From NCBI GenBank assembly GCA_964555355.1, contig CAZKRY010000015.1:52455-116454 (forward strand): DNA of 64,000 bases, given 5' to 3'. Source of the stretch: an uncultured Klebsiella sp. GTDB lineage: Bacteria; Pseudomonadota; Gammaproteobacteria; Ga0077536. Position numbers and translations under genes: made by a program. The notes below the pieces were generated by a model. That model had not been told where the DNA came from. It did no database searches and worked only from the letters and a program-made list of their open reading frames with translations. This document shows positions 11,639 to 15,547 of this stretch, in pieces (within the stretch, counting starts at the first letter, position 1; each line of letters begins with the position of its first letter).

Positions 11639-13615
11639 ATGATTTCGTTAAGACGATCGGTAGCGTTGCCGTTGATTGCATTGCTGGTAGCGGTCACGAC
11701 CGTTTATGTGCCGTCCCTAACAGGCGATTTTATTTATGATGATCAACAGAACATCGTAGAAAACGAATCATTAAGAAACGCGTTCAGTAGTATCGAGGCG
11801 ATGATCGATGCGGCGCTATCGAGCCACGCGGGCCCGCTCGGGCGTCCTATTGCCATGCTGACATTCGCCGCCAATTACGCCGTATTTGGTGATGACACCT
11901 TGTCATTCAAGATCGTGAATCTACTGATTCACTTGTTGAATTCCCTCCTCGTTTTCGTGCTTGCTCGAAAAATTGTTCCGTTACTGTCGACGCCATCGGG
12001 AGCAGCAAGGTCCACACCCAATCCTACGGAAGTCGCAATTTGGGCCGCCGCGATATGGGCCTTGCACCCGATCAATTTGACTGCGGTGGCGTATGTGGTT
12101 CAGCGAATGGCAAGTCTGTCAGCCACGTTCGCGCTACTAGCGTGTTGCTGCTACGTCTTTGCTCGCACGCAAATGCGAGAGCAAGACTCGATGGGGGCAT
12201 GGGTTTGGGCTGCTCCTTGTCTGCTAGCGTGTACCGCGCTTGCGGTATTCACCAAAGAGTCAGGCGCCCTCATCCCGCTGTACATATTCACTATCGAGTA
12301 TTTTGTATTTCGAGGCGCGTTGGTTCAACGCTACGACAGGTGGATAATTCGGGCGGTGGTGTTTTCTGCGTTGCTTTGGATAGGCTGCATATTCGCGCCG
12401 CTTGAATTATTGAGCCGCATGTATGAGTCGCGCCCATTCGACCCAGCCGAGCGATTTCTAACCGAGCTGAGAATTCTATTCTTCTACGTTTACCAGATTC
12501 TCATCCCTGACCTCACCAGCTATTCACTATTTCACGATGACGTCGTCTTATCAAAGTCGCTCATCGAGCCGGTTACGACATTATTCGCTCTCGCCGGGTG
12601 GCTTGCATTTTTATTCGTCTCCTTTTTTTACCGCAATAGATTGCCTCTCATCGGTTTTGGCGTGACTTGGTATTTGGCCGGTCATTTCTTGGAGTCACTA
12701 TCGGTACCGTTAGACCTAATGTACGAACACCGAAATTACATTCCGTCATTCGGTGTTGTTATTGCCGTTGTGACAAGCCTGGCGACATGGTTAGGCAATC
12801 GCATGCCAAGCAGCCAATGCCGGATTCTGTTCGCAATCATCTGTGCCGCGTTCAGCGCCGTAACAGTTGTCCGGGCCTGGCAGTGGGGCGATCCGTTAAC
12901 GTTCGCGCTGGCAACTGCTCGCCACAGCCCAAATTCGCAGACCGCGGTGTACGAACTTGCCCGTCAATACAACCAGCTCTACTTGCGAACCGGCGATAAC
13001 GAATTATGGGAAAAAGCTATTGCCGAATTGGAGAAATCGGTGCCCTTGGGCAATGAAGACTTCAATTCTCTTAGCGCGATGGTCGTCGCGTATGACAGAA
13101 GGAAAAAGCCGCTACCGGAGATATGGCTCAAGCGCTATCAAGAGAGTTTGGCAACCCGAACCGCCAACAAGCGCCTAGTCTCGTCCCTCATTCGTCTTAC
13201 GGAGTGTCAATTCAAGAAAAAGTGTGCATTAGCTCCGCAGTTGATACTAAAGCTATCTGCTAGTTTGCTAAGTAACCCCAATCTCAGTAGGGAGCTGAAG
13301 CGCGATTTTTTGGAGGCGCTCGCACTTTATTACGTCAACCTCCTAGGAGACTTTGCGGCGGCTGAAGAAATACTCCTGGAAATTGTTAACGAAGTACCTC
13401 GTGAACCAAAGTATCGTTTGCGTCTCGCGGAAGTCTATTTCGCTTTCGGCAAGTATGACGCGGCTGCGGCGCAACTAAGCGCCGATGTAGAAAAATATTC
13501 CGGTTCTACGTTAGTGGATGAGAAGCGCTTCATCGCGCGAACGGAGAAACTAATTTCGGATCTTTCTTTAGCGCGGAATTCCGCCGCGAAAGTAAAGAAT
13601 CAACCGCCACGATGA
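11639..13615 (+). CDS. TfpW/TMTC-like GT-C membrane glycosyltransferase with C-terminal TPR-like region (copy 1)
   Basis: Multi-TM N-terminal region with FIYDD, GPLGRPIAM, HPINLTAVAYVVQRM, KE, RFLTE, YEHRNYIPSFG motifs; helical C-terminal domain; directly downstream of pilA. Family recognised from recalled motifs. Confidence 0.75.
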   Translation: MISLRRSVALPLIALLVAVTTVYVPSLTGDFIYDDQQNIVENESLRNAFSSIEAMIDAALSSHAGPLGRPIAMLTFAANYAVFGDDTLSFKIVNLLIHLLNSLLVFVLARKIVPLLSTPSGAARSTPNPTEVAIWAAAIWALHPINLTAVAYVVQRMASLSATFALLACCCYVFARTQMREQDSMGAWVWAAPCLLACTALAVFTKESGALIPLYIFTIEYFVFRGALVQRYDRWIIRAVVFSALLWIGCIFAPLELLSRMYESRPFDPAERFLTELRILFFYVYQILIPDLTSYSLFHDDVVLSKSLIEPVTTLFALAGWLAFLFVSFFYRNRLPLIGFGVTWYLAGHFLESLSVPLDLMYEHRNYIPSFGVVIAVVTSLATWLGNRMPSSQCRILFAIICAAFSAVTVVRAWQWGDPLTFALATARHSPNSQTAVYELARQYNQLYLRTGDNELWEKAIAELEKSVPLGNEDFNSLSAMVVAYDRRKKPLPEIWLKRYQESLATRTANKRLVSSLIRLTECQFKKKCALAPQLILKLSASLLSNPNLSRELKRDFLEALALYYVNLLGDFAAAEEILLEIVNEVPREPKYRLRLAEVYFAFGKYDAAAAQLSADVEKYSGSTLVDEKRFIARTEKLISDLSLARNSAAKVKNQPPR

Positions 13616-13627
13616 GTAAGTAGCTCT

Positions 13628-15547
13628 TTGGATCCATTCTTGCCGCAAGCGCCAAAATTAGCTGCTTTCATGCACTCCTCATCGAAGGCGTACTTCGTGG
13701 TGTGTGGGGCTCTACTCTTTACGTTCTCGTTGTACTTTCCAGGACTCACGGACATTGTCCTATTGGACGACAACTCGGCACTCGGGTTTCTTTTGGTAGG
13801 CCGCGCACTTCCAGCCGATTGGCTATCTTACGTGTTTAGCGACACCGGTCCACTTGGGCGATCGATTTCCATGCTGAGCTTTTTCGCGAGCTTTTGGCTA
13901 AGCGGAGCGGACTTCTCTCAGTGGAAGTTAGAGAACCTTATACTCCATCTTGCGACCGCCGGCGCGCTGTTCAAAGTCGCGCAGCTGCTGGTGATGCACG
14001 GCGCATGCGGCATCTCTAAGCGCACTCACTGGATCGCGGTGGGCGTGGTTTCGCTGTGGGTCAGTGCTCCTGTTCACGTAAGTACGGTGTTGTACACAGT
14101 TCAACGCATGACGATTCTGGCGAGCCTTTTCTCGGCAATAGGTGTCGCGTTGTATTTTTACTCGAGGTTACAGTGCGAATCGTCAACGAAAGCGAAAGCC
14201 GGGATTTTGCTTTCAATATTCATCTTTACTTCGCTTGCAGCCTTCAGCAAAGAGATTGGATTGTTGCTGCCGGCATATTTGGTCGTGGCGGAACTGACCG
14301 TATTAGCCGGCATCGGTGATGCGAAAATTCGCCGATATGGGCGCCGTGCGCTGCTACTAACGTTTACACTTGCCGGCGTCGCTGCGTTCCTGCACTTTGC
14401 TCCGAATCCTTTCCAAACGCTCGCGGCAGCGCATTTGGAACGGGGATTCACCATCGAGCAAAGACTGCTGACCGAATCAAGAATAGTCGTTCAATACCTT
14501 AGTCAAATCGTCACTCCATCGAAACGCAATCTGGGTTTTTTTCACGACGACGTCGAGCTGTCGGTGGGAATCTGGAATCCTCCGGAAACGGCATTATCAA
14601 TTGTCCTAATCTGTGGGCTCATCGGCTTGGCACTTATATTTAGGCGAGCGGCGCCTTTGCTGAGTTTCGGAGTTTTGTGGTTCTTTGTTGGACATTCCAT
14701 GGAATCAACATTGATTCCGCTCGAGTTAATGTTTGAGCATAGGAATTATTTGCCTTCGTTTGGACTTATATTCGGAATATGCGGCGCTGTCGTTCAGGGC
14801 ACGCAGAGTGCATCGGAGCGGCTTCCACGCTTACTCGCACTGGCGGCCATTACCTTGAGCATGGTGATTACGAGATCAATCGTATTGGATTGGCGCACGC
14901 CCGAGTCAATGTATTCTTCTTTCTATGGTGCGCATCCTCTCTCGGAACGCGCAGCATCTCAATTTGCCGAAATATTAACCGTTTCCGGAAAAATCAATGA
15001 AGCCGAGTCCGTGATCGGACGGCTTGACACAGTCGGCTCTCAATTGCATTTGTGGCATTTGCGCTGCCGGACAAATCGAAAACTTCCTGACGATGCATTC
15101 TCGCCCGCTTGGTTATCGCGGGAGGCAACCTTCTCGTCTTATGCAGTGGTAGGTCTAATTGAACTATCAAGATTAAGCATCTCCGGAAAATGCGGCATCG
15201 ACGAAAGAAAGCTGCGGAACTTTCTAAGTCGCGCGCTTCAAAAGCCAATCGTAGTTAGGCATAACAGACAGAAACTCATAGTTTACGCCGCGCATTTTGC
15301 GTGGCGCGCTGGCGATCGCGTATCGGCGTACGAGTTCCTGAATAATGCGCTGGAGTCGTACGATAACGACGCCATGCCGGCACTGCTCATGAGCGAATGG
15401 AAACTGGAATCTGGGGATATTTTAGGTAGCGAGGAGTCCCTCTCACGAGCGGAAGCGATCGCTCGAAAATCCGGCAGGGACATATCAAAGTACTCTTCAA
15501 AATTACGTTGGTTGATCGCGAAAAATCGCGAGCGATTGGCAAAATAA
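13628..15547 (+). CDS. TfpW/TMTC-like GT-C membrane glycosyltransferase (copy 2)
   Basis: Same motif order as copy 1: LLDD, GPLGRSISM, APVHVSTVLYTVQRM, KEIG, RLLTE, FEHRNYLPSFG. Start may be ATG 13670. Confidence 0.72.
   Translation: MDPFLPQAPKLAAFMHSSSKAYFVVCGALLFTFSLYFPGLTDIVLLDDNSALGFLLVGRALPADWLSYVFSDTGPLGRSISMLSFFASFWLSGADFSQWKLENLILHLATAGALFKVAQLLVMHGACGISKRTHWIAVGVVSLWVSAPVHVSTVLYTVQRMTILASLFSAIGVALYFYSRLQCESSTKAKAGILLSIFIFTSLAAFSKEIGLLLPAYLVVAELTVLAGIGDAKIRRYGRRALLLTFTLAGVAAFLHFAPNPFQTLAAAHLERGFTIEQRLLTESRIVVQYLSQIVTPSKRNLGFFHDDVELSVGIWNPPETALSIVLICGLIGLALIFRRAAPLLSFGVLWFFVGHSMESTLIPLELMFEHRNYLPSFGLIFGICGAVVQGTQSASERLPRLLALAAITLSMVITRSIVLDWRTPESMYSSFYGAHPLSERAASQFAEILTVSGKINEAESVIGRLDTVGSQLHLWHLRCRTNRKLPDDAFSPAWLSREATFSSYAVVGLIELSRLSISGKCGIDERKLRNFLSRALQKPIVVRHNRQKLIVYAAHFAWRAGDRVSAYEFLNNALESYDNDAMPALLMSEWKLESGDILGSEESLSRAEAIARKSGRDISKYSSKLRWLIAKNRERLAK

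Follow-up and report, generated by a model that had tools for sequence, protein, structure and literature searches.

A tandem pair of putative TfpW-like glycosyltransferases encoded behind a type IV pilin gene

The window analysed here, a stretch of 64,000 nucleotides from contig CAZKRY010000015.1 that is deposited as an uncultured Klebsiella sp., carries two neighbouring genes, copy 1 and copy 2, downstream of the type IV pilin gene pilA. Their products are true paralogues and, judged from predicted structures, are most likely both glycosyltransferases of the GT-C fold and of the pilin-linked, TfpW-like kind. TfpW itself glycosylates the pilin of Pseudomonas aeruginosa and requires its DDx motif to do so (10.1101/2020.04.19.049825). 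The two copies belong to different deep groups, here termed c1 and c2, which recur in this order behind pilA in other organisms, in some of them with a gene for a probable lipid-sugar synthase close by. The reading that we favour, with modest confidence, is that they are two anciently diverged O-glycosyltransferases, both active and non-redundant, with copy 1 priming the pilin PilA and copy 2 extending the glycan or serving a second acceptor.

Architecture, family and pairing of the two copies

Copy 1 and copy 2 align by BLASTP at 27% identity over 586 columns (E 3e-53), a similarity far above chance; the membrane domains are 32% identical and the C-terminal tetratricopeptide repeat (TPR) domains 23%. 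The motifs DD (D34-D35 in copy 1), GPLGR, QRM, KE, RxLTE and EHRNYxPSFG follow one another in the same order in both proteins. A first-pass annotation of the window, made from its letters without database searches, had described tandem paralogues that share motif order and are otherwise very divergent, and this description holds in full.

AlphaFold2 models built on alignments of 63 and 64 sequences (mean predicted local distance difference test scores of 91.2 for copy 1 and 93.1 for copy 2) each have 11 membrane helices and, behind them, a repeat domain made up wholly of helices. The first periplasmic loop holds the DD motif, right behind helix 1, as the annotation had anticipated for the acidic motif of a GT-C enzyme; KE lies between helices 5 and 6, HDD in the long fourth loop, and EHRNY between helices 9 and 10. 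Foldseek searches matched both models to known GT-C enzymes with probabilities of 0.98-1.0: copy 1 to ArnT (5f15, E 2.9e-3, probability 1.0, template-modelling (TM) scores 0.33/0.38) and to PglB (6gxc, probability 1.0), and copy 2 to AglB (7e9s), STT3 (8agc) and ALG12 (9s6t). TPR proteins dominated the matches to the whole models, and Pfam (TPR_19), a profile search of the PDB and Foldseek agree that the C-terminal repeat domain is of the TPR type. Its conserved cysteine pairs are consistent with a periplasmic location.

By sequence the membrane domain is unlike any catalogued family that we scanned. No Pfam model covers it in 42 family members, DUF1736, PMT_2 and PMT included, at E values up to 1; 25 Pfam families were matched among these members, each in at most 38 of the 42, and none spans the membrane domain. 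That of the window copies had no NCBIfam match, a sequence search with either copy found no PDB chain for it, and a family profile run against the PDB returned TPR proteins only. Pfam likewise found no PMT or MIR domain in the window copies or in the 42 members, which have the TPR domain instead.

A scan of species-representative genomes recovered at least 590 stretches with relatives of these proteins, mostly from Gamma- and Betaproteobacteria, and 74 loci with intact upstream sequence, the window and three near-duplicates among them, were surveyed for gene context. In 66 of these, across many orders, the gene immediately before the GT-C gene is a co-oriented type IV pilin gene. Counting single against paired copies, the survey that the annotation had called for, gave one GT-C gene in 46/74 loci and two in tandem in 28/74; tandem duplication of the gene is thus frequent and not exceptional. 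A homologue of the family 2 glycosyltransferase (GT2) encoded beside the window pair follows the GT-C gene in 39/43 single-copy loci and in 11/27 paired ones. The common unit is accordingly a pilin, a GT-C protein with a TPR domain and a lipid-sugar synthase. The idea of two enzymes for two pilins found no clear association, two pilin genes being present in 10/28 paired and 9/46 single loci. Three metagenome loci (L107, L140 and L158) have three tandem GT-C/TPR genes after one pilin gene, and a homology search with a relative from a Pseudomonas metagenome-assembled genome (L045) returned mostly Acinetobacter proteins.

The division between c1 and c2 is deep. Against profile hidden Markov models of the two groups, copy 1 scores 717 (c1) and 408 (c2) and copy 2 scores 752 (c2) and 369 (c1), and trees likewise place the two in different deep groups. 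The nearest relatives of c1 (42% and 41% identity) and those of c2 (44% and 41%) adjoin each other on the same two contigs, both of which have the gene order sucCD-pilS-pilR-pilA-c1-c2-GT2. All eight further c2-like database proteins that lie on long contigs are the second gene of a pilA-c1-c2 array, the genome and metagenome scans yielded further arrays of this kind, and c1 followed by c2 behind pilA was found in at least 17 other loci (L001, L003, L005, L039, L051 and L084-L091, together with L094-L096, L098 and L100); the order was the same in every pilA-linked c2-like locus seen. Overlaps of 4-14 bases between c1 and c2 occur in several of these arrays. In a neighbour-joining tree of a sample seeded on copy 1, copy 2 falls in a clade of 29 genes that come from paired loci only (168/200 bootstraps).

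One relative reduces the arrangement to its minimum. L091 shares the window's flanks (sucC and pilSR on one side; suhB, a SpoU methylase gene, purM and genes for a DUF2066 protein and an AI-2E transporter on the other), and between them it has only pilA, c1, c2 and the orthologous GT2 gene, with no polysaccharide genes. Because this locus holds nothing else, two GT-C enzymes and one presumed donor synthase make a complete module. Since the pair is old and conserved, non-redundant roles for its two members are likely.

The pairing is not universal. A metagenome scan seeded on c2 uncovered solo c2-like genes, away from pilins, in L092, L097, L099 and L101-L104, and none of the seven solo genes with enough upstream sequence has a neighbouring pilin gene (0/7). 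These genes rule out the proposition that c2 is never found solo: beside pilA the c2 type always has a c1 partner, yet it is not obligately paired everywhere. The solo gene of L092 (4868-6723), whose product is 40% identical to copy 2, lies beside fatty-acid genes, and that of L097 (4995-7073) lies beside dTDP-sugar and aminotransferase genes. The c2-like proteins of the group formed by L097 and L099-L104 are longer, at about 700 residues.

Conserved residues and the roles of the two enzymes

The first-pass annotation had drawn attention to two positions at which the copies differ. The GRP and LHP of copy 1 correspond to GRS and SAP in copy 2, with the Ser codon at 13862 and the Ala codon at 14066. 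The difference is real and no sequencing error, because both codons are identical in two independent assemblies, one from a sand and one from a bioreactor metagenome; in a third, diverged strain the Ala codon is changed only synonymously. Of 23 conserved loop positions that were scored, copy 2 retains 21 and departs only at P70 (Ser) and H143 (Ala). D34, D35, R69, K91, H98, W140, P144, Q155, R156, K206, E207, E220, R272, H299, D300, D301 and E363-Y367 are kept in both copies, and the DD pair is invariant in alignment A3. Eight of the nine listed strain differences in copy 2 fall at third codon positions, and for this reason the gene looks to be under purifying selection.

As a mark of a second class of paralogue, the reading given to these residues by the annotation, the GRS and SAP changes fail: GRP and HP are found in every one of the 63 other c2 homologues, among them the paired orthologues P0122 and P0132. 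Proline occupies position 70 in 103/110 locus-derived proteins and histidine position 143 in 88/110; in the Acinetobacter-type subfamily the figures are 120/120 and 119/120. The two changes are therefore a private double change of copy 2 in this lineage and not the basis of the c1/c2 split. Division of labour, which the annotation had founded on them, is borne out as a general proposition by the old and conserved order of the pair behind pilA, but not on that foundation. Whether such changes are common in single-copy homologues, a question the annotation had raised, can be answered from 54 genes, in which they are present but rare (P-to-S in 2/54, H-to-L/N in 6/54). As single-copy enzymes carry them, neither the change of the proline nor that of the histidine need abolish activity.

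A different and more drastic pattern was seen in other pairs, of a Lysobacterales type. In L022, L028, L042, L057, L061, L064 and L076 the upstream GT-C copy reads KA in place of KE and N/V-D/E-G/Q in place of HDD, and all seven keep DD, QR and EHRNY. The hosts include Arenimonas, Pseudoxanthomonas, Solimonas, Rhodanobacter, Fulvimonas and Lysobacteraceae. The lost KE and HDD residues are invariant in all 54 single-copy genes, and these upstream copies, unlike either copy in the window, may plausibly be GT-C partners that are catalytically dead or have been re-purposed.

For the window pair we propose the following mechanism. The adjacent GT2 would load a sugar onto undecaprenyl phosphate in the cytoplasm, and a flippase, possibly the Wzx-like protein encoded further downstream, would move the lipid-linked sugar to the periplasmic face. 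Both GT-C enzymes would then glycosylate PilA in the periplasm, their TPR domains holding the acceptor. Copy 1 would most likely put the first sugar on a pilin serine or threonine, and copy 2 would most likely add a further sugar or branch, or serve a second acceptor that is closed to copy 1. The roles are assigned in this way because the c1 type occurs alone with pilA and a GT2 gene, because c2 stands by pilA only in company with c1, and because the minimal module has a single donor synthase. A lipid-phosphate sugar is probably the donor, since a GT2 of ArnC/GtrB-like type adjoins the pair, and the annotation's recourse to lipid-linked donors thereby becomes likely for this locus.

Several observations weigh against this proposal. 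The solo c2-like genes have no c1 partner, so that the c2 type can act alone and may then serve other acceptors. Two loop positions that are nearly invariant elsewhere are altered in copy 2. It is wholly from the distribution of the two types that copy 1 is assigned priming and copy 2 extension. The TM-scores to GT-C structures are low, at 0.3-0.4, because whole two-domain models were the queries. The TfpW motif YX6PFX7P is absent as written from both copies, from 110/110 locus-derived members and from 120/120 Acinetobacter-type relatives; its core in loop 4, Y283-x6-P290, is conserved (Y in 108/110, P in 110/110). To our knowledge, experimental work on this family is confined to TfpW of P. 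aeruginosa, and that enzyme primes and polymerises on its own, so a second enzyme is in principle dispensable.

The alternative to which we give most weight, while thinking it doubtful, is that the two enzymes work in parallel, each transferring sugar directly to protein, at different serines or threonines of PilA or on separate proteins (minor pilins, for instance, or further substrates in the periplasm), with the TPR domains choosing the acceptor. The TPR domains are indeed the most diverged part of the two proteins, the solo c2-like genes suggest that the c2 type need not depend on the product of c1, and the pilin of strain Pa5196 is modified at multiple sites (10.1101/2020.04.19.049825). 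Against such a division, the window has only one pilin gene beside the pair, loci with two pilins are not clearly tied to loci with two enzymes, and next to pilA c2 is never without c1. More speculative, and rather improbable in our estimation, is that c1 and c2 are dedicated to pilin glycosylation as a pair, obligate in function or in physical association, and assemble a defined glycan out of one lipid-linked sugar, as L091 would have it, and that in the window the sugar pocket of copy 2 has been re-tuned through the P-to-S and H-to-A changes in loops 1 and 2 for a modified donor made by the cargo genes of the island; a dead GT-C scaffold in the Lysobacterales-type pairs would be a related case.

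It is unlikely that copy 2 joins copy 1 in a hetero-oligomer in a non-catalytic or regulatory capacity, the possibility that the annotation had raised in speaking of one non-catalytic subunit. Copy 2 is the sole member of 64 c2 proteins with serine for the near-invariant proline and alanine for the histidine, TfpW interacts with itself in a two-hybrid assay, the upstream members of the Lysobacterales-type pairs have lost KE and HDD, and the genes of orthologous pairs overlap or abut, which would suit equal dosing. Yet copy 2 retains the DD, R, K, H, W, QR, KE, E, R, HDD and EHRNY residues, and its strain differences at third codon positions suggest a protein under selection; its orthologues carry the canonical residues, and P-to-S and H-to-L/N changes occur also in single-copy homologues, each necessarily the sole enzyme at its locus. 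Least probable of all, and very unlikely, is that the pair acts in the manner of GtrC or ArnT on an envelope glycan other than the pilin's (O-antigen, exopolysaccharide or lipid A) and merely lies beside pilA in a glycan island. The island does hold Leloir glycosyltransferases, a Wzx-like flippase and nucleoside diphosphate (NDP)-sugar enzymes typical of polysaccharide clusters, the GT2 is ArnC/GtrB-like, and solo c2-like genes are found beside dTDP-sugar genes; the constancy of the upstream pilin gene, the lack of any polysaccharide gene in the minimal island and the precedent of TfpW all speak for the pilin.

The locus and its low-GC island

The features of the locus are collected in Table 1. 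The pilA product, the presumed acceptor, has a leader at its start and a Cys pair at its C-terminus, and aligns with the pilins of other c1-c2 loci. The sigma-54-like site upstream of the gene was set aside as evidence for a pilA promoter, as the window has 3 such matches and 2.7 are expected; its position alone favours it. Because a strong G+C-rich terminator of 13 pairs directly follows pilA, the GT-C genes are probably expressed by read-through and at a lower level.

Table 1. Features between pilS and suhB in the window.
Feature	Position	Strand	Basis and remarks
pilS-like sensor kinase	7807..9435	+	Open reading frame; syntenic L001/L003 genes have Pfam 6TM_PilS, HisKA, HATPase_c
pilR-like sigma-54 activator	9442..10770	+	Open reading frame; syntenic L001/L003 genes have Response_reg, Sigma54_activat, HTH_8
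Candidate sigma-54-like promoter, weak	10919..10934	+	TGGCAC-N5-ATGCT, 1 mismatch to TGGCAC-N5-TTGCW; 114 bases upstream of pilA
pilA, type IVa major pilin (145 residues), presumed acceptor	11048..11485	+	Pfam Pilin 1.5e-27, N_methyl 1.1e-10
Strong intrinsic terminator after pilA	11526..11557	+	13-pair stem with 11 G-C pairs, then T run
Copy 1 (c1 type), 658 residues	11639..13615	+	Predicted GT-C-fold membrane domain (about residues 1-418, 11 helices) and periplasmic TPR domain
Copy 2 (c2 type), 639 residues from TTG	13628..15547	+	Architecture as in copy 1
GT2, putative polyprenyl-phosphate sugar synthase (ArnC/GtrB/DPMS type)	15636..16580	-	Pfam Glycos_transf_2 1.9e-28
GT4 (family 4) glycosyltransferase, island cargo	16880..18007	+	Pfam
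Soluble GT2 glycosyltransferase, island cargo	18031..19098	-	Pfam and NCBIfam; no membrane helix
S-adenosylmethionine (SAM) methyltransferase, island cargo	19040..20035	-	Pfam
Wzx-like (Polysacc_synt) flippase candidate	20089..21597	-	Pfam 8.7e-16; at least 9 hydrophobic helices
Sugar C-methyltransferase-like protein	21835..23145	+	Pfam Methyltransf_14 1.2e-50, Methyltransf_13
NDP-sugar dehydratase/epimerase	23145..24104	+	Pfam GDP_Man_Dehyd 2.5e-60
GT4 glycosyltransferase, final gene of low-GC island before suhB	24156..25403	-	Pfam

The start of copy 2 is uncertain, with TTG at 13628, ATG at 13670 and GTG at 13697, the last preceded by GAAGG, as candidates; the database gene model of 616 residues is in line with the GTG start. 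A related strain, X3, differs densely from the window over 13628-13708 (12 differences in about 80 bases), and because of this density the N-terminal tail of copy 2 is poorly constrained or partly non-coding. The GT2 protein encoded just beyond the pair at 15636-16580 has end-to-end matches to the solved structures of ArnC (9hwj and 9bhc), GtrB (5ekp) and the Dol-P-Man synthase DPMS (5mlz), and with its two C-terminal membrane helices (residues 230-248 and 274-292) it is the presumed maker of the lipid-linked donor.

From pilR to suhB (11000-25400) the GC content is 0.50-0.54, compared with 0.58-0.60 in the flanks, and it returns to 0.57-0.59 past about 24-26 kb. The window's extra 9 kb consists of low-GC cargo of variable content, with genes for two GT4s, a GT2, a SAM methyltransferase, a sugar C-methyltransferase, the Wzx-like flippase and an NDP-sugar dehydratase. 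Island content also varies among relatives, L088 and L089 adding sulfotransferase-like and LPG_synthase_TM proteins and L001 an acyltransferase-3/SGNH protein. In L086 (8861-11273) a reverse-transcriptase gene (RVT_1) and genes for transposases of insertion-sequence type directly follow the GT2 gene, a finding that fits the view of the related island as an insertion hotspot. Rfam and tRNA scans of the window gave no matches.

The window's SucC, SucD, PurM, SuhB and PilR proteins are singletons at 90% identity among some 15 billion proteins, and metagenomes of sand, bioreactor and biofilter origin contain the locus; the organism is an environmental gammaproteobacterium that has been little sampled. 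A contig titled 'MAG: Klebsiella pneumoniae' (L004, CAMATU010000021.1; MAG, metagenome-assembled genome) has the same pilA-c1-c2 locus, with profile scores identical to those of the metagenome contig L001, and its label looks wrong for the contig.

Comparison with known systems

That a TfpW-like enzyme glycosylates pilin is known; the paired arrangement linked to a donor synthase is new, and a full-text literature search found no paper on tandem TfpW-like pairs. Pilin glycosylation alters the surface chemistry of the pilus, and it confers protection on P. aeruginosa from pilus-specific phages (10.1101/150227; PMC11841053). TfpW, the one studied enzyme of its kind, has been proposed to do all steps itself. 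A widespread and conserved two-enzyme version with a linked synthase could serve as a natural experiment for pulling apart priming and extension, or site choice, in a GT-C enzyme that acts on protein, and its compact module of four genes (pilA, c1, c2 and GT2) lends itself to reconstitution and glyco-engineering. The family is, moreover, a large one, for whose membrane domain the Pfam and NCBIfam scans gave no matching model.

The closest likeness is to TfpW (AAM52060.1), the pilin D-arabinofuranosyl transferase of the P. aeruginosa group IV strains Pa5196 and PA7. Like the window genes, tfpW lies directly downstream of pilA on the same strand, and its product of about 650 residues spans the membrane with some 11 helices, carries DDx in the first periplasmic loop and ends in a periplasmic TPR domain (10.1101/2020.04.19.049825). 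ArnT is the best structural relative of TfpW, which self-associates and has putative homologues encoded with pilA in several other species. The window differs in having two diverged copies where the TfpW locus has one, and in its linked ArnC/GtrB-type GT2, which would imply another sugar than D-arabinofuranose. Neither tfpX nor genes for the D-arabinofuranose donor (DprE1, DprE2 and the ribosyl transferase) were found among the larger window open reading frames scanned with Pfam; in P. aeruginosa that pathway is unlinked, so its absence from the window is not decisive. We therefore file the pair as TfpW-like and not as TfpW orthologues, the likeness being one of described features.

The label TMTC, used in the first-pass annotation, is an analogy that extends to architecture and motif order. 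The eukaryotic O-mannosyltransferases TMTC1-4 also have 11 membrane helices and C-terminal TPRs, and in both families the motifs run DD and ...RP (loop 1), R (loop 2), KE (loop 3), an acidic motif (loop 4) and E-R-Y (loop 5) (PMC7801869). In TMTC proteins, for which ArnT is again the closest solved relative, these are M1 DD, M2 SHKSYRP, M3 RxD, M4 KE(T/Q)xxT, M5 DW and M7 ERxxY, distributed over loops 1-5 (PMC7801869); the window counterparts are DD, GPLGRP, QR, KE, HDD and EHRNY, in the same order and loops and with differing sequence and spacing. EHRNY is spaced differently from ERxxY, HDD stands in place of DW, and none of the 42 members examined with Pfam matches DUF1736 or PMT_2. The window pair is also bacterial, with a donor that would be undecaprenyl-linked and an acceptor that would be a pilin.

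The proposed flow of sugar follows that of three-component periplasmic glycosylation by GtrA/GtrB/GtrC and that of ArnC/ArnT, in which the undecaprenyl-phosphate sugar produced by a GT2 is the substrate of a GT-C enzyme acting outside the cytoplasm (PMC11194591). The GT2 and GT-C genes adjoin each other. Unlike those systems, the window enzymes have a TPR domain and presumably act on a protein and not on O-antigen or lipid A. For a small flippase of GtrA type there is no small multi-helix open reading frame at 15.5-20 kb; the Wzx-like protein is encoded instead.

The PMT1/PMT2 O-mannosyltransferases, to which the annotation had likened the pair, are a poorer model, for the window copies have neither a PMT Pfam domain nor a luminal MIR domain and carry TPRs in their stead. 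In the yeast PMT1-PMT2 complex both subunits keep the catalytic motif, so that it offers no precedent for a dead subunit. The one hint of physical association between c1 and c2 comes from the overlapping or abutting genes of orthologous pairs. A parallel for the roles that we propose may be the mycobacterial Aft and Emb arabinosyltransferases, a set of GT-C paralogues that draw on a common lipid-linked donor, with priming, elongation and branching falling to different members. They act on cell-wall polysaccharides and have carbohydrate-binding C-terminal domains where the proteins described here have TPRs; in dividing the use of one donor between paralogues, the model for c1 and c2 resembles them.

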